A stretch of DNA of 59,219 bases from Holosporales bacterium. Its GTDB lineage: Bacteria; Pseudomonadota; Alphaproteobacteria; RUG11792. The DNA lies in assembly GCA_031282805.1 (NCBI GenBank), contig JAITDA010000015.1, positions 1 to 59,219 of the forward strand, read 5' to 3'. The position numbers were made by a program, and so were the translations under genes. Below, in pieces: positions 78-52,283 of this stretch; the first letter of the stretch is position 1, and the number at the start of each line of letters is the position of its first letter. Below the pieces are notes generated by a model that had not been told where the DNA came from, ran no database searches, and was given only the letters and a program-made list of their open reading frames with translations.

Positions 78-2225
78 ATGACGTTACTGCATAAGAGAAA
101 TTTACGTTTTGACGTTCTAACCGCTTTTTTGGCGCTAATTTGTATTACTGTAGCGTGCGAAATTCTTTATTCCTCATACGCTAATAGAAAGTTAATTTTG
201 CAGTTTGAAAAAGAATACCACTCGAAAAAAATCGTGGAAACCTCAAGTAGCTGGATCAACTCGTATTTTAAACAACTTGAGATAATAGTAGACGTTCTTT
301 CGCAAAATTTTGATAAAACCCTTTCTGGTAAACTTGATGGATTCGAAAAACCATTATTAGAGAGTATTAAAAAAATTCCGTTTACCCTAAGTTTCTACGT
401 TGCCCTTAATGATGGAACATTTATCCAAGCACGAACTCTTGATGGAGTAAAAAATTTCCAAGGAGAAAAGGAGGTTTTGTTGCCAACCTATACAAAGTAC
501 GCAATCAGAAGAATAATTTTTTCTGACACAAATACTTTGACTGAAACTTGGGATTACTTGGACGAAAATTTTGAACGCATTGCGAATGAGAAATTGAAGG
601 CTGTAACATATGATCCAAGAAAACGTGATTGGTACGTAAAGGCAGAGTTGAATTCCGGACTCACATGGAGTGATGCCTACATATTTTCAACAACAAAAAT
701 GTCTGGATTGACGTTATCTAAACCCTTAGGATACGGAGAAGATAATATAGCATATGGAGTAATATCTGTAGATTTTGCATTATCTAGCATAAAGGGATTG
801 CTCGAAAAAGTGAAGGCGAGCCAAAATTCTAGGGTTTACTTGATAAGCACAAAAAATGAAATTTTGTCTTCAACCTGCGATACTAAAACATTTGCTCAAG
901 AAGATTCAACGGACAAAAAATCAAATTTACTGGAAAGTATAACTTCGTCCGATGATAAAGTTTTGCAGGTTGCTGAGAAAATGTTATTGGGAGCGAATAC
1001 GTCTCATGCGAGATTTTTTGTGGATGGAGAAGCTTACGTTGCATCGACGAAAAAACTGGCTATACAACCAGCCTCACTGCTAATTATAACTCCACAATCA
1101 GATTTCACCGCAGATTTTGAAAAAGTACAACATCACATGCTGTATATATCAGTAGCCATATTTCTGTTTTCTTTCGGAATTGTGCTTATATTGGCTAAAA
1201 AAATAGCAACTCCTATAACGAAACTTTGTGAATCTGCAAGGGTTATTGGTGATATGGATCTTGATAAATATCCAAGTCCACCAAAATCAAATATCATTGA
1301 AATTCAGGAGCTTTCGAATTCGATAAACTCGATGAGATTAAGTGTATCAACTTTTGCTAAATATGCTCCAAAAGACCTTGTAAAAAAACTGATAAAACAC
1401 AACTTACAACCAGAGCTAGGCGGAGAAATTAAAGAAATAACCATGTTATTTTCAGATATAGAGAAATTTTCCACTGTTGCGGAAAGGTTGCCATCTGAAT
1501 ATCTGATACTGCATCTATCTGAATACTTTGATGAGTTGACGAAGGTTATAATGGATCACGATGGAATAATTGATAAGTACATCGGGGACTCGATAATGGC
1601 AATTTGGGGAGCACCAAATCCAGATGAAAATCAGGTAGTGAATGCATGTTACGCCGCTCTTGAATGCCAAAAAGTCCTTGACCAACTGAAGGGCAAGTGG
1701 GCTCCACTTGGGAAGCCGCCCTTGCCGACGAGGATAGGACTACACACTGGTGCTACTATAGTAGGTAATATTGGCTCACGTGACAGAATGAATTTCACTG
1801 CGATAGGAGATGCTGTGAATATTGCTTCAAGACTTGAGGGGGTAAATAAAGTGTATGGTACAAAAATTCTGGCCTCAGAGGAGGTCAAAAGCGCAGCTAC
1901 AGGTCGTATTTTATTCAGGGTAATAGATAAAATCGCTGTTAAGGGACGCTCTTCCGGAATCACAATATTCGAGCCACTTTGTGCTATGGGGGATATTAAC
2001 GATGGAGAATACTATACTCTGATAGAACTGAGTGCGAAGTCTAACGAAGCATTTGAATTATATCAGGGAAAAAAGTTTAAGAAAGCGTTGAAATTGTACG
2101 GAGAAATACAAGCAAATTTCCCAGACAAGACGTCTTCTGTTGTGCCCTTAATGCAAAAATGTAGGGAATTTGTGAAAAAATCGCCCGTAAATTGGGATGG
2201 CATTAATTATTTGAGCGAGAAATGA
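78..2225 (+). CDS. Membrane sensor class III adenylate/guanylate cyclase (TM, ~320-aa periplasmic Cache-like region, TM, HAMP-like linker, cyclase domain, TPR-like tail)
   Basis: 715-aa ATG ORF. Cyclase-homology motifs FSDIEKFSTVAE, DKYIGDSIMAIWGAP, RIGLHTGATIVGNIGS, NFTAIGDAVNIASRLEG. Two hydrophobic segments at aa ~13-33 and ~355-375. Confidence 0.9.
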   Translation: MTLLHKRNLRFDVLTAFLALICITVACEILYSSYANRKLILQFEKEYHSKKIVETSSSWINSYFKQLEIIVDVLSQNFDKTLSGKLDGFEKPLLESIKKIPFTLSFYVALNDGTFIQARTLDGVKNFQGEKEVLLPTYTKYAIRRIIFSDTNTLTETWDYLDENFERIANEKLKAVTYDPRKRDWYVKAELNSGLTWSDAYIFSTTKMSGLTLSKPLGYGEDNIAYGVISVDFALSSIKGLLEKVKASQNSRVYLISTKNEILSSTCDTKTFAQEDSTDKKSNLLESITSSDDKVLQVAEKMLLGANTSHARFFVDGEAYVASTKKLAIQPASLLIITPQSDFTADFEKVQHHMLYISVAIFLFSFGIVLILAKKIATPITKLCESARVIGDMDLDKYPSPPKSNIIEIQELSNSINSMRLSVSTFAKYAPKDLVKKLIKHNLQPELGGEIKEITMLFSDIEKFSTVAERLPSEYLILHLSEYFDELTKVIMDHDGIIDKYIGDSIMAIWGAPNPDENQVVNACYAALECQKVLDQLKGKWAPLGKPPLPTRIGLHTGATIVGNIGSRDRMNFTAIGDAVNIASRLEGVNKVYGTKILASEEVKSAATGRILFRVIDKIAVKGRSSGITIFEPLCAMGDINDGEYYTLIELSAKSNEAFELYQGKKFKKALKLYGEIQANFPDKTSSVVPLMQKCREFVKKSPVNWDGINYLSEK

Positions 2226-4923: not shown

Positions 4924-7365
4924 TCACGCTCCAGGCCTCTTAAGACCTGCTACAGGATTTGGAGCAGCTGGCTCATCCCTAGAACCAATGAAAAGTTTCT
5001 CGAGTAGTGGTATATCTCTAAATGCCTCTCCAACAGTTGGGGCACTTATAAATCTCTTTGTTTGCAAATTCGCTACTGTAATTTTGTCAAGAGAAACACC
5101 ATCAATCGACTCACGCAAGTCAAGGCAGCTCAACACTACGTTGAAAGGTTGATTAAGTATCAATGCTACAATAGATTCATCTTTGCCTCCTTCGTATCTT
5201 GCTTCGCAAATTCTCAATCTTAACTTCTCAAACTCATCAGGGTGTAATACAATGAACATTCCGCGCACAGTTCTACCAACTCCCAATGAATCGATGTCCC
5301 TTATCGAATTGCCATCTGTAAACTCAGTTACAAATGGGAATATCACAGATGGGCAATCCGTTAAATAACCAATTGTCGGATCTTTTTCAGATATGCTGTA
5401 AGAGCCCCCCCCCTGGTTATTATCGTGAAGTGATTGTTGTACAACGCAATTATGCAGAACTTTTTTAAATAATTGTAAATCCCGGGTTTCCCACAGTGAG
5501 ATGTTCATGTCGCAATATCGAAAAAACCCTTCACCTTTCTTCGCTTTTTCGATGATATAATTTCTGCAAAAGAGGTGTTGGAATTTGACTCCAGTGAGTT
5601 CATTCCGATCTGCACCATGCAAACGTTCACCATTCTGGATTGTAATAAATATTGGTGCATTATCACCAATCGCGCCAAATATGCCTGCGATTGAACCCCG
5701 TGCTTCAACAGTGAGATCACGGAACAATCCCAAACATGATATTACGGTTCCACTAATGTTATTGTACCCATCGTAGGAATGTAACAATGGCACTAGCGAC
5801 GTTTCTCCATCATGTAAATTTGGTCTACCAAGTATCATCTCTACTCTCAATATCTCGTCTGCAAGACGTCTCTCAGTAAATGGCGTGTCTTCAGGTATAT
5901 CTTTCACTATAAGTGAAAAGTTTTCACGCGAGAGAGTTGTACTACATCTGGCAATCACTTCGATCCGTTCGTCAAACCTTAATACAGGCCGATACAGGCG
6001 GTAGAGATCACACATATTCTGGCATCTGTGTATAAATGCAGGCAAAACATACGGCTTGAACAGTGGATTATCCGGTTCTTGTTTCATAAGTTCTCTAGAC
6101 ATCGTACTTACAGCTTGCATTACACCATGATTTTCCCTATCGCAGCAATGGAGGGCTAACAGGTATTTGGAAGATGAATAATTTACCATCCCCCTCATTG
6201 CAGCTTCAAACGTCATGTCAAACCAGTTGCCACTTCTCCCGTACGCAATTGCAATTGCCCCATCAAATATCTCAGTTTCTAGTCTTGCTAATCCCTTCGT
6301 TTGACCTCGTTCTCTATCACGATACCTTTCTTCAATCATATTCCAAATCGCTACTAACGGCATTCTCTCCAGATACCGCCAAAGCAAATCTCTCGCTTCC
6401 TCAATGTATGGCGCGAAAATTGCTAAGTTACCAGTTGTCAATGTATTCGCAATTTCATCCAGAATTGCTCGTATTTGATCTGGCCCTCTATCATTCATGA
6501 ATGCCGTTGCAAACAGTCTCTTTAACATAAAATGCGCTATCTTGCCGGTAGTTCCCATTCTCATGTCATACGCCAAAAGGTTACTACCAAAATTCTGCGC
6601 CCTCCTCAATTCCTGTAATCTTACTTCCATCCCGCTCCTATATGCAAGTGCACTATCAACGTATGCCTCTAATATCATTACTGCATTTTCATCTTGCGGG
6701 GTTTTCCCGACTCCCTCTTGAATACACTCTCTGTTTCCAACTAGGAATAGTCCAAAATTTGAATCATGATAGCCACTCCCTGTATGGGTTAAGTGGAGCA
6801 GTTGTACCATGGTGTACATCAGCGCTTGAATCTCTGGATGGGATGTGGACAAATTTTTTACTGCCTGCATCGCGTCTTGAAGCCAAGGTTCGTGCTGTTC
6901 ATTGCCGACAAAAAATGATTTGATTCTTCCAATTGCCTCAGTAGCATCCCATCCTGCTTTTGGCTTATCCCAATTGAATAAAACGAAATCCCTGAACACT
7001 TCTTTAAGTACAAGATGCGCTAATCTCGGTAGGGTGTTTTCGCGTAAGTTATATGCAAACAAATTCACTTGACGTCCTATTACAAGGCTCACATCCCCAT
7101 TTACTAATGCTCCAAGAGGTCCTCGCATTAAATTAAATATAACTTCAACGTTTTCCGTCGAAAGCCTACTTTTTATCAGTTTTTCCCGGCAAAAAACATT
7201 CAGTGCTCGTTCCAGCTTATCCTCCATTGCTAGGCCACCACAACTATCATAGTCGTGTGAATTTGGCAGCTCTCCTGCCACAACACTCAACGTCAACATC
7301 ATTACCGCAACTGTCACACACATCGACACAGTACACAGAGCTTTTCTAATTAAAGTACTTGTCAT
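4924..7365 (-). CDS. Hypothetical secreted protein, 813 aa, no recognisable domain
   Basis: Uninterrupted 2.4-kb ORF. ATG 7365 is preceded by AAGAAGG 8 nt upstream. N-terminus MTSTLIRKALCTVSMCVTVAVMMLTLSVVAG-ELP looks like a signal peptide. The longest ORF would start at 7428. Confidence 0.7.
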   Translation of the reverse strand: MTSTLIRKALCTVSMCVTVAVMMLTLSVVAGELPNSHDYDSCGGLAMEDKLERALNVFCREKLIKSRLSTENVEVIFNLMRGPLGALVNGDVSLVIGRQVNLFAYNLRENTLPRLAHLVLKEVFRDFVLFNWDKPKAGWDATEAIGRIKSFFVGNEQHEPWLQDAMQAVKNLSTSHPEIQALMYTMVQLLHLTHTGSGYHDSNFGLFLVGNRECIQEGVGKTPQDENAVMILEAYVDSALAYRSGMEVRLQELRRAQNFGSNLLAYDMRMGTTGKIAHFMLKRLFATAFMNDRGPDQIRAILDEIANTLTTGNLAIFAPYIEEARDLLWRYLERMPLVAIWNMIEERYRDRERGQTKGLARLETEIFDGAIAIAYGRSGNWFDMTFEAAMRGMVNYSSSKYLLALHCCDRENHGVMQAVSTMSRELMKQEPDNPLFKPYVLPAFIHRCQNMCDLYRLYRPVLRFDERIEVIARCSTTLSRENFSLIVKDIPEDTPFTERRLADEILRVEMILGRPNLHDGETSLVPLLHSYDGYNNISGTVISCLGLFRDLTVEARGSIAGIFGAIGDNAPIFITIQNGERLHGADRNELTGVKFQHLFCRNYIIEKAKKGEGFFRYCDMNISLWETRDLQLFKKVLHNCVVQQSLHDNNQGGGSYSISEKDPTIGYLTDCPSVIFPFVTEFTDGNSIRDIDSLGVGRTVRGMFIVLHPDEFEKLRLRICEARYEGGKDESIVALILNQPFNVVLSCLDLRESIDGVSLDKITVANLQTKRFISAPTVGEAFRDIPLLEKLFIGSRDEPAAPNPVAGLKRPGA

Positions 7366-7590
7366 CTCAGCTACCTTCTTTTGTAGATTGCACAACGGAC
7401 ATGCTTGACATTGTACCACTCGTCTCACCCTTCTTCAAGTTTTTTACAAAGAAAATAAAACGTAGTATAGTGCTGAAATGGTCAAGTAAATAACATACGC
7501 ACTATTTGAAGTACTGCTTCACACTCTACATTGTTACACAAAATATGCGACAAGAATAAAACATACTGAAAGCCACTTCAAATTTGAGAT

Positions 7591-12464: not shown

Positions 12465-12526
12465 TATTAAATTTTTCTGCGTTTTAAGTATAACTTAATG
12501 AAAATACCTCATAATGACGTCAGTGA

Positions 12527-13249
12527 ATGAATGTGCGGTTTTTTATGAACGTATTCAAATTTTTCTCAAGAATTACTGTCTTGATTTGCTTTCAACTTGG
12601 CTCGTTGTATTACGGTGTTTGTTCGGATCAAGGTGATGAAGATAGTACCCTCGAGCAAGCATATGATTCTGATTTGAATTTTGATCCGATAACAGAGATA
12701 TCTCTCGGATGCAAAACTTCTCTAAATCCGGTATACGTCTACGTATCTCCGACTTGCCTGCATTGTGGAAGGTTTCTGATCGAAGATGTGGAAAAATTTC
12801 TTGAAAAATACGGAGAGACTGCTTGTGTAGTTGTAGGAATTCTGCCAACTTCAGCAAAGGATATTTTCATCATGAAACTAATCCAAAATGAGACAAATGA
12901 TGCAAACAAATACTTCGCGATCTTCACAAACCTTATAAAACGAGCTATAGCCACGATAAACTATGTAAAACCCACTGACCATCAACTCAATCTTTACAAG
13001 GGGTCAAATACCGATGAGGAAATGATAAAGTTTCAGGTTATAGCCTCTGAATTTGGTTTTACTGATGCTCAAATAATTAGTGCAATCCCAAATATGGGTG
13101 GTCTCTTTGAAATTAGTGTGATTGGTAAATACAAAACGGGTGTAAGAGTGCTTGCCGACATTCTTGAAACAAAGGAACTGAACCTACCAATTATTGTTCG
13201 TGGCAACAAAAAATATGAAAGCCTGGAAAAGGCTATGGAAGATAACTAA
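12527..13249 (+). CDS. DsbA-family thiol:disulfide oxidoreductase (Com1-like), exported
   Basis: 240 aa. Hydrophobic N-terminus. Thioredoxin-fold active site SPTCLHCGRF (CxxC). Confidence 0.7.
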   Translation: MNVRFFMNVFKFFSRITVLICFQLGSLYYGVCSDQGDEDSTLEQAYDSDLNFDPITEISLGCKTSLNPVYVYVSPTCLHCGRFLIEDVEKFLEKYGETACVVVGILPTSAKDIFIMKLIQNETNDANKYFAIFTNLIKRAIATINYVKPTDHQLNLYKGSNTDEEMIKFQVIASEFGFTDAQIISAIPNMGGLFEISVIGKYKTGVRVLADILETKELNLPIIVRGNKKYESLEKAMEDN

Positions 13250-14026
13250 CTTGATATAAACGTGTACAAACTTGTCGTCAATGTCAAGTCGAGAAGTTTT
13301 ATCAGTGCCAAGTTGATCGTGGAGAAGAGAGGAGTTATACTTGCTTTTGGCGTTATATCAAAGGGGATAGTTGTATATTTTTATCAATAGCAATATTGGT
13401 TTTTCAGCGTAATCAAGTTTGGTAACGTAACACAAAATTACAAGACTTTTAATTTTCAAAATTTGTTACAACATACTCAATATAGGCATCTTCTTCAAAG
13501 ATTTCTTCGTACTAAAATTCTAGCCTGTATGCACCATACATACACCGTTGAATTTCAATGTTCCACCATGGAAATTTCTAAAAGTTTTAGTGCCACCATT
13601 TTCAACTTCAAATCCAGTAATACACACTGCGTCTCGATCACCATCAATTCACATATATTCATGCGGTCTGTAAATTTTCAACAATGGTATTAAACTATTT
13701 TAGTGAGCAGTTGGTAAATAAAAAAAATAATCTAAGATGGAGAGATGAGCAAGAGGAGATTAAGTAACCAAAAACACTGCAGCATTGTTTTCCATAAGTT
13801 GGGATTGTCGATTCATAAGAACACTGTGGATAGTGGGAAACAGAGGTAGATGAATCATATTTTGAAGGTGCGATGAAGTGTATTTAAAATATCAAAACGA
13901 AGATGGAAGGATGTACTCCGTATCATATGATAAGAATCAAGATATAGTCAGGGAGCATTGTTTATACAGATTACTGAATTGGGTATAATACACTTAGTGT
14001 GTTCAAACATTTCATGACAACTAATA

Positions 14027-14106
14027 TAGATAAGTATAATTATCAATGGAATAGAGAACTTTCGGGATCAAGCTAAGAGACATATGAGGAAATTTAATGA
14101 TATGCC
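14027..14106. repeat. Copy A of a dispersed intergenic repeat (partner at 43961-44015)
   Basis: TAGATAAGTATAATTA + 26-bp insert + CAAGCTAAGAGACATATGAGG + aa + ATTTAATG-a-TAT-g-CC. The partner has the same blocks without the insert. Confidence 0.85.
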
Positions 14107-14430
14107 ACAAAGAAGCACTCTTATCCACTACTGCCACATAATTTAAATGATACTTTATTTTGAAAATTATTTATCATTTTAGTCATCCGGTTGTCTCAGC
14201 TATTATCTTCTTTTCGTGTTATGTGTTATAAGTAAACAAAATTGGTAATTGATAGCGGCTATCAACGAATAAAAAAGTACACGCGACACCACGTGACAGC
14301 TCTATAGGGATTTGTAAATACAAAAACGAATTTGGAAGTATCGACTGGAGTTAAATTTGATAACCGCAAATTACGGTATTGAGGCAGATATCTACGTTTT
14401 TAAACTGGTTTAATGCCTGGTATCCATCGA

Positions 14431-14464
14431 AGCGATGAGTTGGGAAGATCCCAAACTCATCGCT
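14431..14464 (-). terminator. Hairpin 10 nt after the repeat-protein stop; possible terminator or 3' stabiliser
   Basis: AGCGATGAGTT(GGG)-aagatc-(CCA)AACTCATCGCT: 11 perfect bp plus 2 more after one mismatch. No U-tract follows. Confidence 0.3.
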
Positions 14465-14473
14465 GATATTCCA

Positions 14474-17400
14474 CTATTCTACCATTGTTTCGCGTAGATT
14501 TTCAAGTCCGTCCACAACCCTTGTGAGCCGTTCTGCGTAATCGGCGCTGCGCGCTACAGCTCCACTATCCAAACTCGAATCCGATCCCTCATCGATCACC
14601 GTCACCGATTTGTCTTCATCAGTCACCGATTCCCTATCTCTACCAAAGTCAGTATGCTCTTTTGGGGCCTGATCGGCTGGGCTCACAACGTCTGATTCTG
14701 GTGTCACCGATGTTTCTGATGACGCCGATCCAGATGGGGATACCTCATTGCTTTGTCGATCTTCGCTATATTCGGACCGTACGTCAGTCGTTTCTCCACC
14801 ATGGCTGCCATGCTTTTGCTTTTGCTCTTTGACTTGAGCGGTTGGGCTCTCAGCATCTGGACCGATTGATTCTGAGCTCTCCAATTCCGATTGGCGCCCT
14901 ACATCTCTCCCTTGGTCTTCGATATATTCGGACCGTACGTCAGTCACTTCTCCGCCTTGGTTGCCCTGCTTTTTCTCTTTGACGTGAGCGAATGGGTTCT
15001 CAACTTCTGGTCCGATTGATTCTGGGTCCTTCAATTCAGGGCGGCGTCTCACTTCCTTCCTTTGATCTTCGTCACGCTCATCACCCGAATAGGTCTCTTG
15101 TACTTCATCTCCACCTGCATCCCGGTGTGCCCCCCTGTCGTCTCGTCCGACATTGCCTGTATCAACTCCATAGTCGGTGGGCATTGCATCGGTTTGTTTG
15201 TGCAGCACCATGTCTCGGCCTCTTCTATGTCTCGAGGCGATCTTTCGGCTTCCTGTGTTCGCTCTACCTGATTCACCGAGTGTATCAGCATTCCTTAATG
15301 ATTCTGTTCCGGTCGTCAGTGTATCTCGTTGTTTTGCTTCAAGACGTTCTCCTTCCGGTCCCCCCTCTCTATGAATCCTCTCATCTTCCAACACCCGCAC
15401 TGATTCCGGGATTGGATATACCCGCCGCGTAGTTGCTAGGGGCGCTACCTGCCGCTCGTTTACCTCCCTTCGAATGTCGTCTATATGTTGCTCTATAACG
15501 TTGGCTATCTCCCGCTTTATACCGCTTGCCATCCGTTGCATCAAAACCGCGAAAGTTGATGCTGCATCTGCTAGGGCCGGTGGTGGGACCGGATCTAATG
15601 TCGGTGCCTCTATTGGTGTTGCATCCGCATGTGCTGTTGGTGCGTCTTCTGCTATCGCTGAAGCTGCTACCGGTGCTGCTACGCTCTGAGCTGTTGCAAA
15701 CCCTACTTGCGCTACAGGAGCTGGAACTGCTGTTGCGCTTGGATTTGTTGTAGTTACCTCTGCTGGTGCTGTTGCTGCGCTCGGAACTGCTGTAAACTCT
15801 ACTTGCGCTACAGGAGCTGGAACTAATGTTGCGCTTGGAACTACTGTAGTTGCCTCTGCCGGTGCTGCTGCACTTGGAACTGCTGTAGCTATCCCTGTTT
15901 GAGCTACCGGGGTTAGAGATGTCGGTTCCGCACCTGGAGTTGCTGTATGTACCGCTTCTACTGGTATTGAAGTTGGAGCTGCTACTGGTGCTGCTGCGCT
16001 TGAAACTACTGCAGTTGCCTCTGCCGGTGCTGTTGCGCTTTGAACTGCTGTAGAAACTACCTCTACAGGTGTCACTGGTATTGCAGCTTGAGCTTGTCCT
16101 GATTCTATTTCAGTCACTTTTTTATTGAGATCTTCTAACATTGTTAAAATTTTATCCGTATCTCCGGCCACATTTTTCATTTCTTCGACCACTATTTTCA
16201 CTTCGCCCCTCGTCTCAGCCACCTCATCCGCTACTTTTTCAACCTTCTCCACTGTTTCTTCCGTAGGCCGATTATCTTCATTGACCTTTTGGCTTGCCTT
16301 CTCTGCTATTTTTTGTCCTGCTTCTTCTGTTGGATCTGGAGATTCGCCAGGTTTAAGTGGAACCAACAGCTGTTGTTCATTTGGAGTCACTGTTACCGTT
16401 AGTGCTGGTGCTGCCACTGGAGCCGCCGTTGGTGCCGGTGCTGGTACTTCCGCTATTGCTGTTGGAGCCACTGTCGGAGCTGCCGTAGCCTCAGCAACTT
16501 GTGCTGGAGCTGGTGCTGGAGCTGGAGCTGTAGTGGCCTCGGCAACTTGTGCTGCTGTTTGTACCGCCGTTGGTGCTGGTACTGGAGCTGTTGCCGGTAC
16601 TACTGTTGTTTGAGCCGCTGTTGGAGCTGCCGTAGCCTCAGCAACTTGTGCTGCTACTGGAGCTGGCGCTGCTACAGGTACTGTTGGTTCTGGTACTGCT
16701 GCTGGTGCTGTTGGAGCCGGTGCTGGTACTCCCGCTACTACTGTTGTTTGAGCCGCTGTTGGAGCTATAGTGGCCTCAGCAACTGGTTCTGGTACTGCAG
16801 CTGGTACTGCAGCTGGTGCTGCCACTGGAGCCGCCGTTGGTGCCAGCGCCTCAGCTACTGGTGCTGCTACTGGTGCTGCTGCCAGTACTGTTGGTTCTGG
16901 TACTGCTGCCGCCGTTGGTGCCAGCGCTTCAGCTACTGGTGCTACTACTGGCGCTGCTGCCGGTACTGTTGCTTCTGGTACTGCTGCCGCCGTTGGTGCC
17001 GGTGCTGGTACTCCCGCTACTACTGTTGTTTGAGCCGCTGTTGGAGCTGCCGTAGCCTCAGCAACTTGTGCTGGAGCTGGTGCTGGAGCCGCTGTTGGAG
17101 CTGTAGTGGCCTCAGCAACTGGTGTTGGTGCTGCTACTGGTGCTGGTGCTGCTGCCGCCGTTGGTGCCAGCACCTCAGCTACTGGTGCTGCTACTGGAGC
17201 TGGCGCTGGAGCTGTTGCCGGTACTGCTGTTTGTACCACCGTTGGTACCAGTGCCTCAGCAACTGGTTCTGGTACTGCTGCCGCCGTTGGTGCCGGTGCT
17301 GATACTTCCGCTACTGCTGTTGTTTGAGCCGCTGTTGGAGCTGTAGTGGCCTCAGCAACTGGTTCTGGTACTGCAGCTGGTGCTGTTGGAGCCACTGCTG

Positions 17401-17983
17401 TTGGAGCCACTGCTGGAGGATCTGCAAATAGTTCTTGCATAAACTCTCTATCTTCATTTTGCTCTGGTTCAATTGGAGTCCCCATTCCTAGTGCCTGATC
17501 GGCATTGGCTACGTCAACTAGAGCATTCTGATCACCTGCTGCTGGTTGATACACTCCCTGGGTAGGCAACGGCCCGCCCTCTGCATTTGGTGCAACACCT
17601 CCTAGTGCCTGATCGGCATTGGCTACGTCAACTGGAGCATTTAAATCACCAGCTGCTTGCATTGGGGGAAACGCTGCTTCTGGTACCTGATCGACATTGG
17701 CTACATCAACTAGAGCATTTTGATCACCAGCTGCTGGTTGATACGCTCCCTGGGCAGGTAACGGCCGGCCCTCTGCATTTGGTGCAACACCTCCTTGTAC
17801 CTGACCAACATCGACTACATTGGCTGGATCATTTTGATCACCAAATGCAGGTGATTGGGCTGGCATGCCTTGTGGAGCCTCCACATTTGGCGCAAACGCA
17901 CCTTCTGCAGCATAGGAATATCCCCCCACTATACTCAAAACGAGTGGGGTAAGACAAACCGTTATTAATTTCTTATTTATCAT
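14474..17983 (-). CDS. Large secreted mosaic tandem-repeat protein (Ala/Pro/Thr/Val-rich arrays, coiled coil, acidic Ser-rich tail)
   Basis: 3.5-kb ORF. ATG 17983 has GAGAGG upstream and gives the signal peptide MINKKLITVCLTPLVLSIVGGYSYA-AEG (1169 aa). The longest ORF starts at 18025. Four internal repeat families are listed below. Confidence 0.85.
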   Translation of the reverse strand: MINKKLITVCLTPLVLSIVGGYSYAAEGAFAPNVEAPQGMPAQSPAFGDQNDPANVVDVGQVQGGVAPNAEGRPLPAQGAYQPAAGDQNALVDVANVDQVPEAAFPPMQAAGDLNAPVDVANADQALGGVAPNAEGGPLPTQGVYQPAAGDQNALVDVANADQALGMGTPIEPEQNEDREFMQELFADPPAVAPTAVAPTAPAAVPEPVAEATTAPTAAQTTAVAEVSAPAPTAAAVPEPVAEALVPTVVQTAVPATAPAPAPVAAPVAEVLAPTAAAAPAPVAAPTPVAEATTAPTAAPAPAPAQVAEATAAPTAAQTTVVAGVPAPAPTAAAVPEATVPAAAPVVAPVAEALAPTAAAVPEPTVLAAAPVAAPVAEALAPTAAPVAAPAAVPAAVPEPVAEATIAPTAAQTTVVAGVPAPAPTAPAAVPEPTVPVAAPAPVAAQVAEATAAPTAAQTTVVPATAPVPAPTAVQTAAQVAEATTAPAPAPAPAQVAEATAAPTVAPTAIAEVPAPAPTAAPVAAPALTVTVTPNEQQLLVPLKPGESPDPTEEAGQKIAEKASQKVNEDNRPTEETVEKVEKVADEVAETRGEVKIVVEEMKNVAGDTDKILTMLEDLNKKVTEIESGQAQAAIPVTPVEVVSTAVQSATAPAEATAVVSSAAAPVAAPTSIPVEAVHTATPGAEPTSLTPVAQTGIATAVPSAAAPAEATTVVPSATLVPAPVAQVEFTAVPSAATAPAEVTTTNPSATAVPAPVAQVGFATAQSVAAPVAASAIAEDAPTAHADATPIEAPTLDPVPPPALADAASTFAVLMQRMASGIKREIANVIEQHIDDIRREVNERQVAPLATTRRVYPIPESVRVLEDERIHREGGPEGERLEAKQRDTLTTGTESLRNADTLGESGRANTGSRKIASRHRRGRDMVLHKQTDAMPTDYGVDTGNVGRDDRGAHRDAGGDEVQETYSGDERDEDQRKEVRRRPELKDPESIGPEVENPFAHVKEKKQGNQGGEVTDVRSEYIEDQGRDVGRQSELESSESIGPDAESPTAQVKEQKQKHGSHGGETTDVRSEYSEDRQSNEVSPSGSASSETSVTPESDVVSPADQAPKEHTDFGRDRESVTDEDKSVTVIDEGSDSSLDSGAVARSADYAERLTRVVDGLENLRETMVE
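14771..15082. repeat. 156-bp (52-aa) tandem duplication in the acidic C-terminal region of the repeat protein
   Basis: TTCGGACCGTACGTCAGTC recurs at 14771 and 14927. Peptide units are ...ESIGP(E/D).E.P.A.VKE.KQ...GGE.TDVRSEY.ED... Confidence 0.85.
15703..15894. repeat. 96-bp (32-aa) tandem repeat in the second Ala/Pro/Thr/Ser-rich block
   Basis: CTACTTGCGCTACAGGAGCTGGAACT occurs at 15703 and 15799. Peptide: AVPSAA.APAE.TT..PSAT.VPAPVAQV.F. Confidence 0.8.
16400..17425. repeat. ~1-kb degenerate coding tandem array, unit ~138-147 bp (46-49 aa)
   Basis: GTTGTTTGAGCCGCTG recurs at 16605, 16743, 17025 and 17319. Peptide core: VAEAT.APTAAQTTVV.GVPAPAPTA..VPEP. Confidence 0.85.
17487..17800. repeat. 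192-bp (64-aa) tandem duplication near the N-terminus, with a nested 114-bp sub-repeat
   Basis: CTAGAGCATT occurs at 17518 and 17710. CCTAGTGCCTGATCGGCATTGGCTACGTCAACT occurs at 17487 and 17601. Peptide: GGVAPNAEG.PLP.QG.YQPAAGDQNALVDVAN.DQ. Confidence 0.8.
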
Positions 17984-18114
17984 AAAGACACCTCTCACAA
18001 CAACAAATGGATTATGAAGTCCCATAAATTTCTTCTATTTCAATTATGAGAAGAAAACATTAAGAATAAGTTAATATATGTAGAGAATTTTGTATTTTTC
18101 TGAATTTTTCAAAA

Positions 18115-35318: not shown

Positions 35319-36188
35319 CTAGTTCAACATATCTTTTGGATTGAAACTTAGTTCCAGATTTTTCCATTCGTTGTACTTTTCTTTTGGAAGCGGAAGCGGA
35401 CTGCACTCTAAAACTGCCCTGTGTGCGTTCTCGGCAGCTATTTTGAAATCTGGATCACTGTTCATCCTATCGGTATCTACAATTTCCGCTTTTGTGACAT
35501 TACCGCTTTGGTCAAGTTCCATCTTTATGTCAACCACCAAATCTTCAGCACTTTTCAATCCAGCAGGAAAATGCCAGCATTTTCGTATCGTTTGCCTAAT
35601 TAAATCGATTTGAGTAGCAGTTAATACATCTCCCACCTCTTCAGCCTTAATGCCACTATTTTCATTATCATCAGTAGCAGCAGCGTCATCTAGTATACTA
35701 CTAAAAGATTTCTTTGCAGCTTTAGGATCCACCTTATTTTTTCTCTTGTCCCTTTTCAAATTGACAACTGCCTTTTCTTTCGTTTGGGATTTGCTGCTTG
35801 ATTTCCAATCTTCCTTCTTGTGTTTTTTAGTTTTTGGTGGCTTTTGTGTTTGCTTCTTCCTTTTTTCCTTTACTACGACTTTTGGAGTTTCTCCATCATC
35901 AGTATCACTTCTGTTCGTTACCTCTTCTTTCGATTCTGGTAAATTCGCTGGACTCTGCATACTAGTATCTGGTGCTTCATCTGAAGCATTCGACTTCGTT
36001 TTGCTCAACTTCCCCTCTTGGTTTGAAAGAACAGGAGCCTTACTCTTGTCTCCCAGCTCAACAAAATCGAAAACAGCATATCCAGAATCTTTTATTTTTG
36101 ATGAAAAAATTCTACCAACATCTGCATAGAGGAGCAAAACTACCACGACATGCAGAATGAATGAGACTAGTAGCGGTTTTTTGTTCAT
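35319..36188 (-). CDS. tolA: TolA-like envelope protein (N-terminal TM, Lys/Pro/Glu-rich linker, TolA/TonB-type C-terminal domain)
   Basis: 289 aa. Sits immediately after tolR with a 1-nt overlap. C-terminal IRKCWHFPAGL...VDIKMELDQSGNV fits TolA_C/TonB_C. Confidence 0.65.
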   Translation of the reverse strand: MNKKPLLVSFILHVVVVLLLYADVGRIFSSKIKDSGYAVFDFVELGDKSKAPVLSNQEGKLSKTKSNASDEAPDTSMQSPANLPESKEEVTNRSDTDDGETPKVVVKEKRKKQTQKPPKTKKHKKEDWKSSSKSQTKEKAVVNLKRDKRKNKVDPKAAKKSFSSILDDAAATDDNENSGIKAEEVGDVLTATQIDLIRQTIRKCWHFPAGLKSAEDLVVDIKMELDQSGNVTKAEIVDTDRMNSDPDFKIAAENAHRAVLECSPLPLPKEKYNEWKNLELSFNPKDMLN

Positions 36189-36688
36189 TACACACCTTTT
36201 TTGTCAACCTTCTTTCTTCCAGAAAACCCATTCGATTTATCCTTCAAACTACTGTTTAGCGAAGAAATATGATTTGTTGAGTCAACTTCAGAAATCAGGG
36301 AAACCTTACAAGCACCAGCTGAAGAGATGAACCCCATTATCTTCATAATGACTCCGTATTGGAGGTCTTTGTCACCTCTGATGTACACAGTGTCACTTTT
36401 CCCATTTTCTAAAATCATTGGCAGTTTTTGAATTAATTCATCCAACGTAACATTTGCTTCCTCAATATAAATTTGAGAATCCTTGTCAATAGACACAATA
36501 ACAGGAGCATTTTTCGTTTCAGCTAGCGATGCTGCTTTTGTTTGTGGGAGATCAACTTGTACACCAACGTTAAGCATCGGAGCAGTTATCATGAATATTA
36601 TGATCACGACGAGCATAACCTCAACGAGCGGGGCTATATTGATATAAACCTGTACCTTTTGCCGCCTACTGCCGTTCCTAACGTTCAT
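36188..36688 (-). CDS. tolR: TolR/ExbD biopolymer transport protein
   Basis: INIAPLVEVMLVVIIIFMITAP is the ExbD/TolR TM signature. I prefer ATG 36688 (166 aa), which overlaps the tolQ end by 11 nt. The longest ORF starts at 36727. Confidence 0.8.
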   Translation of the reverse strand: MNVRNGSRRQKVQVYINIAPLVEVMLVVIIIFMITAPMLNVGVQVDLPQTKAASLAETKNAPVIVSIDKDSQIYIEEANVTLDELIQKLPMILENGKSDTVYIRGDKDLQYGVIMKIMGFISSAGACKVSLISEVDSTNHISSLNSSLKDKSNGFSGRKKVDKKGV

Positions 36689-37460
36689 CAAATTGCCTCG
36701 AAACAATTGAGCAAAACTCCTCCGCAAATGTCTCTAGCCTATTTATATACCTGTTCGTATCGTTCATCAATTTATTGTATCCTACAGCTGCTGGAATTGC
36801 AGCAACGATACCAAGCGCTGTAGTAAATAATGCTTCTGATATAATTGGCGCAACAACGGCTATGCTAGCATTCTGTTGAATAGCAATTGCCTTGAAGCCA
36901 TTCAAGATGCCAAGAACGGTTCCAAAAAGCCCAATAATGACACCATTTGTTCCCAACGAAGAGAGAAAACCAAGGCCCTTCTCTAATTCATCAACCTCTT
37001 TCCTTATTGCAATTTGCGCTGCCCTATCAATTCGTCTTTCAAGTAGTTTTGTCGCTGACGAATCACTTGACTGAGCGCTCTTCAAAAATCTCCCCCATTC
37101 AGCCATCGCTGCGCAAAAAATATTGACCATCGGGTTGAAGGCATCATCCCTTAACTCCTTATATAGAGTTTCCAACGGAACGCCAGACCAAAATTGGTCA
37201 TCAAATTCATCTGTATCCAGCGCAAGCTTTTTCATTTTCAGATGCTTGCCAATTATGAGTGTCCAAGACCAAATAGATGCCGCCAATAAAACCAGTACAA
37301 CAACCTTTATTACAAAACCAGCATTCCAAAACATTGCAAACACTGACGAATCGTGAACTGTGGCTACCATGTTGGTTGCTCCACTGGTTGTAAGTATATC
37401 CTGCGTCGGCAGATTATTCACTATATCAGAGGCTACACTTGACGCCGGAGAACTTTCCAT
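36678..37460 (-). CDS. tolQ: TolQ/ExbB (MotA/TolQ/ExbB proton channel)
   Basis: Motifs GLFGTVLGILNGF and EALFTTALGIVAAIPAAVGYN. ATG 37460 gives 260 aa. A GTG at 37481 would add 7 aa. Confidence 0.85.
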   Translation of the reverse strand: MESSPASSVASDIVNNLPTQDILTTSGATNMVATVHDSSVFAMFWNAGFVIKVVVLVLLAASIWSWTLIIGKHLKMKKLALDTDEFDDQFWSGVPLETLYKELRDDAFNPMVNIFCAAMAEWGRFLKSAQSSDSSATKLLERRIDRAAQIAIRKEVDELEKGLGFLSSLGTNGVIIGLFGTVLGILNGFKAIAIQQNASIAVVAPIISEALFTTALGIVAAIPAAVGYNKLMNDTNRYINRLETFAEEFCSIVSRQFDER

Positions 37461-38076
37461 ATTGTCTTGAATAAAAAACACCCATCATCACACCATTATA
37501 GTATAATCCATAACTGAATAAAACCAGATATTACTTGTCTACTTAAAGATTTATTAATCCATTCGTAACGCAAGTTCATTTGACGAATAATTTAGTGTAC
37601 CAACGTATATGAAGATGCCATTGCATGAAGATCACGAAAAAATGCCAAAGAATGGTGAAACAATGGAGTAAGTAGCGAGAATGTGGGTAGGTAGGCCGTT
37701 ACAAAGTCAACAACAGTTGGCAGAACGCAATTCCAAGCTAGAAATCGCCACCAGGAACTCATTTGACATTCCCTCACTAGAATATGCTGCCCATTTTTTC
37801 CTGATGTGCAAAGGCTCATTGATTGATATTGGCAACAACGGTGTTGGGCTTGTTACTAACGACAGATGAAATATGATGTAGACAATTAAGGGTATGAGAG
37901 CTAGAAACACAAATCCACAATATTAATGAACGATAGATTAACGCATATCGTCCTCAGCATTGAAAACCACGAAGACCATGATTGGTGTTAAAGTACATCA
38001 ACTTAGGAACATCCAGCAGGAACTGCTAACAGTTGAGAGGTAGACTGAGATACTTTGAATCCACAGCCACATTCAT

Positions 38077-50757: not shown

Positions 50758-52020
50758 TCAAAAATCGATTGTTGATACGTAGAAATTTTCACGTTCTTTT
50801 AACTCGGAGACTGCCCATACTAGTGCATCGACTCTATCCGGTGAATGTTCTGGTTTTTCGGTATACGATAAGTTACACATCTGTTCTTCGAGTTCGGTAA
50901 ATTCCTTAATATGGAAAATCTTGTGCGATTCATACAGAAAAGAAATAGGTTCAGCCCTTGCAATTTTTCCTTTAATAGCCCTAGTTTTCTTGAATGGGAG
51001 ATTCGGCTGGATCGTTGCGAGCATTTCTTCAACTAAGTCACCGCCATTGTTCGTTTCAGCAACCACTCGCGTTGCCCTATAGTCATAACACGCTCGGCAT
51101 ACTATCTTAGCCCATTCCGGTGGCTTGTACTTACCACTGAGATCATCGATGACGTACATCTTGTCATCATATCCAATTCCTGCCACTATTATACCAGTTT
51201 CATCAGAGTTTTCACCCGAACTAACGGCGGGGTCAACCCCAATCACAATTCGTGCCAGATTTTCCAAATCTACATCTCTGTAGATGATATTCTCTCTTTT
51301 CCAAACGGTATCCTCTTTTTCCATAATAAGTTCCCCATTTAACTCCTGCCTACCAACCCTCGTATTCTGGTACATATCCCTCATTGTTTTTATGAATCTT
51401 TGAGATAAATTCGCTGCATTATCGAATGTAGAACCTCTCGTTAAATGCGTGTCGCGAGCCTCAGACAGAGTCTTCAAAATTTTAAGGGGTCTCGGAGTTG
51501 TGGTCATTATGCATTTTGGATCATCTCCAATACGTAATGTAAACATAACCTGCTGCCAAATGGCATTGGGATCTTTGTATTTCGCAAATTCGTCAATCCA
51601 CAATAAGTCGAATTGGTATCCTCTTAGTTTTTCTGGGTTATCACCACTTAAAATATACGCCCTTGCTCCATTTTCCCAAACAATTTGATTTTTCGATTTG
51701 TAATATTTAAATTTTACTATATCTGGATCTTCGAACTTGTTTTCCTCGAGTTGAAACACTTTTTCGGCGATCGTCGTTGAAAGAAGTCCACTCATTCCTT
51801 CCACCATAACATCATTTGCCTCACGAATTGTTTTTCCGATGATGCCTATTCGTTTGTAGCGACCACTGTTGACCATCTCCATTACTGCTTCGGCGCCTGT
51901 CCTCGTTTTACCGAACCCGCGTCCCGCTAAAATCAGCCAGAGCCACCAGGATCCATTCGGAATTTTTTGTTCTTTTCTGGCAATATCGTGCCAGTTTTGT
52001 ATTAAATTAGTATTGTTCAT
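50758..52020 (-). CDS. Phage/GTA-type terminase large subunit, isolated
   Basis: Walker A-like AGRGFGKTRTGAE and Walker B LLWIDEFAKY. Nuclease-half motifs VIGVDPA and VVAETNNGGD. ATG 52020 (420 aa) has AAGGA ~9 nt upstream. The longest ORF starts at 52041. Confidence 0.8.
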   Translation of the reverse strand: MNNTNLIQNWHDIARKEQKIPNGSWWLWLILAGRGFGKTRTGAEAVMEMVNSGRYKRIGIIGKTIREANDVMVEGMSGLLSTTIAEKVFQLEENKFEDPDIVKFKYYKSKNQIVWENGARAYILSGDNPEKLRGYQFDLLWIDEFAKYKDPNAIWQQVMFTLRIGDDPKCIMTTTPRPLKILKTLSEARDTHLTRGSTFDNAANLSQRFIKTMRDMYQNTRVGRQELNGELIMEKEDTVWKRENIIYRDVDLENLARIVIGVDPAVSSGENSDETGIIVAGIGYDDKMYVIDDLSGKYKPPEWAKIVCRACYDYRATRVVAETNNGGDLVEEMLATIQPNLPFKKTRAIKGKIARAEPISFLYESHKIFHIKEFTELEEQMCNLSYTEKPEHSPDRVDALVWAVSELKERENFYVSTIDF

Positions 52021-52283
52021 TGTTATAATCCTTTCCTTCATATTTGGTTATTTATATCGTTGATTATTTGGCATTTGAACGTTCAATGTAATTCATTACA
52101 CATTGAAACTGCAGTTCATTTGCCGTTGTTTACACTCTTTGTGAGTAAGGTAAAATACGAAATGTGAGTACACTGATTGACAATTGTGTCTCAGAGTTCA
52201 CATTGAAATGCGCTTAACTGAGTTGTTCTCCCTGATAACACATTTCTTGAGAAATTTTGTTGAGAATAGTTGAGGAAATCCGG

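Follow-up and report, generated by a model that had tools for sequence, protein, structure and literature searches.

What kind of protein keeps its promoter and its leader while the rest of its sequence can no longer be aligned among relatives, and where would such a protein work? The question is raised by a gene, hereafter the target, on the minus strand of contig JAITDA010000015.1 of a Holosporales bacterium. The window, i.e., the whole stretch of 59,219 nucleotides (nt) that was analyzed and whose numbering is used for all target positions, carries it at 14474-17983, where the original prediction had placed a mosaic repeat gene for a secreted protein of 1169 amino acids (aa), a candidate effector or surface antigen. 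The reading that we favor, tentatively and with a probability of about 40%, is that the target is a Sec-exported, fast-evolving protein of the envelope or of the cell surface, located at the interface with a host and probably under CtrA control. In more general terms, and with no greater confidence, it would be a lineage-specific protein working outside the cytoplasm of a host-associated bacterium related to Holosporales.

The first point to settle is whether the gene is real and where it begins. The open reading frame (ORF) extends over 14474..18025, with the stop codon at 14474-14476; translated from its first ATG it gives 1183 aa, and from the ATG at 17983, which opens the sequence MINKK, 1169 aa. 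A strong Shine-Dalgarno site, GAGAGG (17991..17996, minus strand), precedes this second ATG, and the upstream-DNA alignment of four orthologous loci, described below, indicates that both the site (GAGAGG or GAGG, between -10 and -13 at every locus) and a ATGATAAATAAGAAA start are kept. Because both are conserved in the four loci, 17983 is the correct start and the 1169-aa form the correct product. The gene prediction of the source, P0001, has 665 aa and begins at an internal GTG, so that some 504 residues were cut from the N-terminus, the signal peptide among them (the stretch concerned is 16397-17983, minus strand), a mis-annotation that is typical for repeat-rich genes in metagenome-assembled genomes (MAGs).

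Base composition bears on the same point. The guanine plus cytosine (GC) content of the target is 0.53, against about 0.33–0.40 over most of the remaining window, and the excess is confined to codon positions 1 and 2 (GC1/GC2/GC3 of 0.74/0.56/0.30, and 0.82/0.64/0.23 in the N-terminal half). It derives from Ala, Pro, Thr and Val codons, in agreement with the earlier attribution to Ala and Pro. GC3 in seven housekeeping genes of the window is 0.31–0.37, and the synonymous codon preferences of the target are similar to theirs. Since the third position and the codon choice are housekeeping-like and the excess is found only at the first two positions, the frame must be coding along its entire length and the gene native rather than a recent import. 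A non-functional ORF, either an artefact of repeat assembly or a frame left open by chance in GC-rich repetitive DNA, would be in keeping with a source gene caller that took only the last 665 codons, and with the long spurious ORFs that the repeats also contain on their other strand. We consider it highly improbable, given that the composition is frame-specific in both halves of the gene, that the Shine-Dalgarno site, the start codon and the leader are kept in four genomes, that every tandem-repeat period detected by Tandem Repeats Finder is divisible by three, and that the longest exact DNA repeat within the gene measures 56 nt. The assembled copies are old and diverged, which makes a mis-joining of those present unlikely; identical copies may nevertheless have collapsed in the assembly. 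The target is a real, intact and native gene.

The protein begins with what has the features of a Sec-type signal peptide (residues 1–25, MINKKLITVCLTPLVLSIVGGYSYA followed by AE; 17909..17983, all target features being on the minus strand). Two lysines, K4 and K5, are followed by a 16-residue hydrophobic core and by SYA-AE, an A-x-A-like cleavage site and the very place where cleavage had been predicted, and the leader is the only hydrophobic segment in the whole protein. Then comes an acidic region rich in G, Q, N, P and A (residues 26–192; 17408..17908), predicted as coil, with a 64-aa repeat (192 nt, 1.8 copies; 17494-17843) and four copies of the sub-motif AGDQNALVDVANADQ. The following A/P/T/V block (residues 193–530; 16394..17407), also predicted as coil, is made of nested imperfect repeats with periods of 147, 78, 54, 39, 27, 18, 15, 12 and 6 nt (16425-17214) and protein offsets of 26, 41–49, 80–98 and 192 aa; throughout residues 201–500 A, P, T and V together account for 42–46 of every 50 residues. 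A linker and a first helical module (residues 531–630; 16094..16393; predicted helices at 552–627) hold the motif G556-x-x-I-A-E-x-A-x-Q-K566, to which we return below. An A/P/T/S block (residues 631–800; 15584..16093) with a 32-aa repeat (96 nt, 2.3 copies; 15670-15887) separates this module from a second one (residues 801–900; 15284..15583), for which a low-confidence single-sequence model gives helices at 801–846, 860–873 and 876–900. The charged tail, rich in R, D, E, S and G (residues 901–1141; 14561..15283), contains a duplication (150 nt, two copies; 14758-15071) of 50 aa, or 52 with a 2-aa indel, whose copies align as ..ESIGP..VKE.KQ..GGE.TDVRSEY.ED, and the protein ends in a predicted amphipathic helix (residues 1142–1169; 14477..14560; modeled at 1142–1168). 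The last 120 residues are Ser-rich. Every repeat that the original prediction had listed was recovered by Tandem Repeats Finder, and the offsets in a self-comparison of the protein match those of the program.

The AlphaFold2 single-sequence model of the target (mean predicted local distance difference test, pLDDT, of 34.5) has no folded domain and no strand anywhere, and its helices are limited to residues 4–25, within the leader, and to those mentioned above. About four fifths of the mature chain, of 115 kDa, would thus be low-complexity and unstructured according to the model and the composition, broken by three short helical modules; the isoelectric point (pI) of the whole protein is 4.3. 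The ratio of nonsynonymous to synonymous change between repeat copies within the gene is about 0.7–1.25, for small samples, and the exact sequence of the repeats seems hardly constrained.

The claim that no homology is recognizable has held in all our searches. Word-indexed searches over 5.8 billion proteins returned the target itself only, both with the whole protein, when the candidate list was saturated with low-complexity words, and after removal of the A/P/T blocks; with the trimmed alignment of the four orthologues the window protein alone was returned. An exhaustive phmmer search with residues 530–1169 against 1.84 billion representatives again found only the target. Nothing significant was obtained with Pfam and NCBIfam, where the best matches, DUF1664 (E = 0.07) and YoaA helicase (E = 0.011), were both far under the cut-offs, nor in a sequence search of the PDB. 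The target is therefore a sequence orphan, in a family of a familiar kind, one more low-complexity protein that brings no new mechanism. What is distinctive of the family is one feature, a conserved cassette of CtrA-type promoter and leader joined to a body that evolves freely.

This feature becomes apparent when the locus is compared among relatives. We have found by gene order, in three related MAGs, an ORF located immediately 3' of ftsA-ampG, on the same strand and with a MIN[KR]K start. These are the positional orthologues at 12640-16737 of locus L007 (1365 aa), at 10325-12796 of L002 (823 aa) and at 2987-4438 of L005 (483 aa), a threefold spread in length. Of the first 16 residues, 8–10 are identical between the window protein and each of the three. 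FtsA at the same loci is 62–66% identical and AmpG 38–53%, and the target is not alignable. All four proteins are acidic (pI 4.0–4.5), and Pfam detected no domain above noise in the three orthologues. Each has repeats of its own, 24 aa in 10 copies and 15 aa in four copies for L002, and 98 aa in 2.9 copies and 34 aa in 1.9 copies for L007, with the exception of L005, in which no repeat families were found. By inspection, the order of the parts is common to the four proteins: the leader is followed by a region rich in P, Q, A, S and E, then by a helical segment in which K and E abound, then by acidic, Ser-rich sequence, and an amphipathic helix closes the chain (by eye only, all three orthologues end in helical-looking sequence).

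Some resemblance is left in the middle of the chain. The central helical segment of the target compared with those of L002 and L005 gave z values of about 5, reached by none of 300 shuffles, and the motif G-x-x-I-A-E-x-A-x-Q-K aligns in these three proteins. A matching stretch, GRGIAEAAQ, can be seen by eye in L007, where MAFFT put a different glycine. At the locus following ampG, the place that was inspected, the gene is absent in six other relatives (L001, L003, L004, L006, L008 and L011). A small, patchy and very fast-evolving family is what these data describe, since its members are unalignable, have their own repeats and are missing at the locus in these six relatives.

The region upstream of the gene has behaved very differently from the coding sequence. 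The gap between ampG and the target is 131 nt long and carries the promoter region of the gene. It contains a CtrA-type box, TTAA-CTTATTC-TTAA (18060..18074, minus strand), at -91 to -77 from the ATG and overlapping the -35 position, and, 11 nt past it, a -10-like hexamer, CATAAT (18043..18048, minus strand). A TTAA-N7-TTAA box is found at -85 in L002, -84 in L005 and -89 in L007, always 11 nt ahead of the hexamer, whose four versions are CATAAT, CATAAT, TATGAT and CATAAT. Both half-sites coincide with the columns that are invariant in the upstream alignment. As estimated by shuffling, a box is expected by chance in 1.5–5% of such intergenic regions, and the joint probability would be about 5e-7 if the regions are independent. 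TTAA-N7-TTAA(C) is the consensus CtrA-binding motif of alphaproteobacteria (PMC9791040), and recognition of CtrA sites is conserved from Caulobacter to Rickettsia (PMC2877005). To judge from the box, the target is probably under CtrA control. Nine other boxes exist in the window, seven of them intergenic (starts at 12484, 37543, 40822, 43316, 43336, 52656 and 56958); some lie upstream of tolQ, of a weakly thioredoxin-like gene (12527) and of a 517-aa ORF, orf517, with two boxes 24–58 nt before its ATG.

With these elements a scenario can be drawn. Transcription would be started by CtrA at a defined moment in the cell cycle or in development, after which the product would be exported through Sec and would lose its leader by cleavage. 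The helical modules could pair or bundle, so that the protein would self-associate, and the acidic repeats together with those rich in Pro, Ala and Thr might form, within the envelope or at the cell surface, an extended and hydrated brush of negative charge turned towards the host. Selection would act only on the composition and on the order of the modules, the repeat units being free to drift, expand and contract, and because of this the orthologues would differ threefold in length and be unalignable. To pass the outer membrane the protein would require the type II system that has been reported for Holosporales (PMC11724238, PMC9866348), or else vesicles. A role as effector or surface antigen, as originally predicted, is a reasonable guess that fits the rapid divergence and the patchy distribution.

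Several facts weigh against this scenario. The leader suggests export as far as the periplasm, and for a Sec substrate without a beta-barrel, a lipobox or a sorting signal the default destination is the periplasm and not the surface. The 59-kb window contains no secretion-system genes, those of type II included, and no ctrA gene. The full TTAA-N7-TTAAC motif is present in only two of the four boxes (L002 and L005), and over the window TTAA-N7-TTAA occurs 10 times against 4.1 expected, a number reached by 4 of 100 shuffles; for such an AT-rich motif this is marginal, and we do not use the enrichment as an argument. The AlphaFold2 model, which agrees with the composition, is of low confidence, and its pLDDT was too low for a fold search. 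As to the family, BLASTP gave no significant similarity between the target and its L007 counterpart, and the proposed orthology rests on position, leader and architecture, with modest sequence support coming from the central helical segment.

On an alternative reading the target stays inside the periplasm and has a structural or spacing function; it might be a disordered acidic filler, or act as a ruler connected with remodeling and division of the envelope, and its CtrA-type control would simply group it with other envelope genes. We regard both parts of this alternative as possible, although doubtful and less probable than a role at the host interface. The Sec leader without any outer-membrane targeting feature agrees with it, and so do the conserved position beside ftsA and the muropeptide permease gene ampG, and the other CtrA-type boxes of the window, which precede envelope or possibly exported products (tolQ, the thioredoxin-like protein, itself a sub-threshold assignment, and orf517). 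There is also the precedent of the periplasmic proteins of Holospora, whose infectious forms have an enlarged periplasm full of stage-specific proteins (PMC9866348, PMC11909080). However, equally close relatives lack the gene at the same locus, only the upstream neighbors are conserved, so that an apparent tie to division may reflect nothing more than an inherited gene order, and a divergence so extreme in sequence and in length (483–1365 aa) is unusual for a housekeeping component of the envelope. We favor the host interface over a purely periplasmic role because a housekeeping protein of the envelope is rarely one that can be dispensed with, that varies threefold in length and that defies alignment at such distances.

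Known envelope and export families were also considered. A TolA or TonB paralogue had been named beforehand as the competing identity, and a divergent TolA, TonB or similar periplasm-spanning energy transducer would share with the target a hydrophobic N-terminus and, behind it, long Pro/Ala-rich and charged (Lys/Glu-rich) helical stretches that could span the periplasm. The target, however, has neither TolA domain III nor the TonB C-terminal domain at E ≤ 1, its leader has a signal-peptidase site and would be cleaved instead of serving as a stable anchor, and the gene lies outside any tolQR or exbBD operon. The true TolA of this bacterium is found elsewhere in the window, at 35319-36188, directly after tolR (289 aa; TIGR02794, 68.9 bits, above the cut-off), and BLASTP of the target against it was negative. 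This alternative is close to refuted. The operon in question is a canonical tolQ-tolR-tolA (35319-37481, minus strand) with MotA_ExbB and ExbD domains, and a CtrA-type box (37543-37557) is located 62 nt upstream of tolQ.

Other identities were rejected. An autotransporter or two-partner (type V) system finds no Pfam match and no predicted strand, and the C-terminus is a charged helix. For a lipoprotein Cys10 is too near the N-terminus, is replaced by Tyr in L002, and is not part of a lipobox. C-terminal sorting signals (PEP-CTERM, GlyGly-CTERM) were discarded for want of a second hydrophobic segment and of an NCBIfam match, and TonB in the strict sense, in spite of the Pro-rich spacer, for want of TonB_C at E ≤ 1. 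No matching domain was found for a FliK-like ruler or a ZipA-like linker, and a Sec leader fits neither.

The identity of the organism is relevant to what the protein may do. We scanned one genome per species with FtsA, and the nearest relatives, 56–66% identical and all labeled Holosporales, Holosporaceae or Alphaproteobacteria, are MAGs from termite gut and rumen; a metagenome scan with FtsA as query, aimed at closer strains in which the number of repeats could be compared, gave only relatives under 30% identity. An uncharacterized clade from termite, rumen and other animal guts, inside 'Candidatus Paracaedibacteraceae', has been reviewed (PMC11909080). In a related rumen MAG (L008, 1-981) a TLC ATP/ADP translocase adjoins ftsA (PF03219, E = 5e-112), which speaks for intracellular energy parasitism in the clade. 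A termite-gut MAG (L003, 16583-21284) codes for a ubiquitin hydrolase, or deubiquitinase, of the UCH family (PF00443, E = 4e-21) that has a hydrophobic segment at its N-terminus; the adjoining ORF looks, by eye, like a paralogue, and leucine-rich repeats were matched weakly (E = 2.6e-4, under the cut-off) by a protein encoded nearby. These are eukaryote-like candidate effectors. The clade appears to be host-associated, TLC and UCH being typical of bacteria that live with or inside eukaryotic cells.

The neighbors of the target are housekeeping genes. They code on one side for a NUDIX hydrolase and for a product of 240 aa whose only match, thioredoxin-like, is weak (E = 0.0047, under the Pfam cut-off), and on the other for the AmpG-family permease, FtsA and a polyprenyl synthase. 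About 180 nt past the stop codon there is a hairpin followed by a run of T that resembles a terminator (14280-14295, minus strand; consensus match only). It lies within 1.2 kb of downstream sequence (13250-14473) with no ORF longer than 76 aa and no Rfam match, a long gap for an otherwise compact window, in the whole of which the Rfam scan detected one tRNA only. Two more ORFs of the minus strand have no Pfam or NCBIfam match, the already mentioned orf517 (41739-43292, 517 aa), with an N-terminal hydrophobic segment and its two upstream CtrA-type boxes, and one of 834 aa (4924-7428), with an N-terminal hydrophobic stretch and an unremarkable composition; the two qualify as candidates for exported proteins peculiar to the lineage. 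A large terminase of phage type (Terminase_6N plus 6C; 50758-52041, minus strand) stands alone, as the ORFs scanned beside it are not phage-like, and has a CtrA-type box 615 nt upstream; it may be the remnant of a gene-transfer agent or of a prophage. Finally, a sensor cyclase, adenylate or guanylate, whose extracytoplasmic domain is of the Cache type (78-2225, plus strand), is notable as a signaling protein in a bacterium that seems host-associated.

The target, predicted to be exported and evolving quickly, is a concrete candidate for host interaction in a gut clade known only from uncharacterized members (PMC11909080). Its CtrA-type promoter could make it a marker of a cell-cycle or developmental stage, the length of its repeats could serve for strain typing, and its localization would reveal where the bacterium touches its host. 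There is also a practical warning, in that gene calls that truncate such ORFs lead to proteins of this type being under-reported in the annotations of MAGs. A broader idea, for which we would claim little probability, is that the gut Holosporales clade carries after ampG an export cassette, made of a CtrA promoter, a Shine-Dalgarno site, a MINKK leader and a freely evolving disordered body, and expressed only at one developmental stage. Were this the case, these uncultured symbionts would possess, as Holospora does, an infectious or transmissive form, driven by CtrA, and the target would be the main component of that form, periplasmic or on the surface, where it meets the host.

It remains to compare the target with systems already described. 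Among Gram positives and mycobacteria, Apa/MPT32, and the streptococcal antigen I/II and PspA with their Ala- and Pro-rich stalks, are Ala/Pro-rich secreted or surface proteins. They share with the target the Sec leader, extended segments rich in Ala and Pro (and Thr), and coiled-coil modules that serve as stalks or host-binding surfaces. The target, by contrast, belongs to a diderm and has no cell-wall anchor, its only Pfam match at E ≤ 1 is the weak one to DUF1664, and the likeness is one of composition only.

The comparison originally proposed was with the tandem-repeat proteins (TRPs) of Anaplasmataceae. The TRPs of Ehrlichia and Anaplasma (TRP32, TRP47, TRP75 and TRP120, and the MSP1a-type repeats) are acidic, Ser/Thr-rich and intrinsically disordered, have species-specific tandem repeats that vary in number and sequence, and come from host-associated alphaproteobacteria, and in all this the target resembles them. 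In them an N-terminal signal peptide is missing, and their secretion is of type I, in one step and through a C-terminal signal, or of type IV. The part of the proposal that stands is therefore the acidic, Ser-rich, tandemly repeated character of the protein (pI 4.3; periods of 64, 26–49, 32 and 50 aa), and the parts that fail are homology, leader and taxonomy, as the target has no sequence similarity to TRPs, comes from another bacterial order, and differs from them in its conserved cleavable Sec leader, its long Ala/Pro/Thr/Val blocks and its three helical modules. Placing the organism in the frame of Anaplasmataceae was wrong, given the Holosporales-type FtsA relatives, the gut clade and the TLC and UCH loci; the window itself has tolQRA and ampG, and the relatives tlc. 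An effector of TRP type, delivered in one step by type I or type IV secretion into the host cell and using its acidic Ser-rich repeats to act on proteins or DNA there, would fit the disordered chain and the apparent host association of the clade. We nevertheless consider it unlikely, and far more so than a periplasmic protein, since a conserved cleavable Sec signal peptide is unfit for one-step export of this kind, and since the protein lacks RTX or glycine-rich repeats as well as a basic C-terminus.

A better parallel is offered by Holospora obtusa, whose infectious forms have stage-specific periplasmic proteins, the 63-kDa PRP1 and an 89-kDa protein of the invasion tip (PMC9866348). The sequences of these proteins are novel, they have a putative signal peptide and they are partly released towards the host, one of them into the host nucleus, by a route for which Sec plus type II secretion has been proposed (PMC9866348). 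PRP1 has a D5_N-type DNA-binding domain, whereas the target has no domain; no homology was detected, the exhaustive search covering residues 530–1169, and no developmental cycle is known for the gut clade. The likeness, as in the case of the TRPs, is by analogy only. With this proviso, the target and the proteins of H. obtusa have in common that they come from Holosporales sensu lato, that their sequences are novel and that they carry a signal peptide, stage control being for the target only proposed, and we would regard those proteins as its nearest biological precedent.

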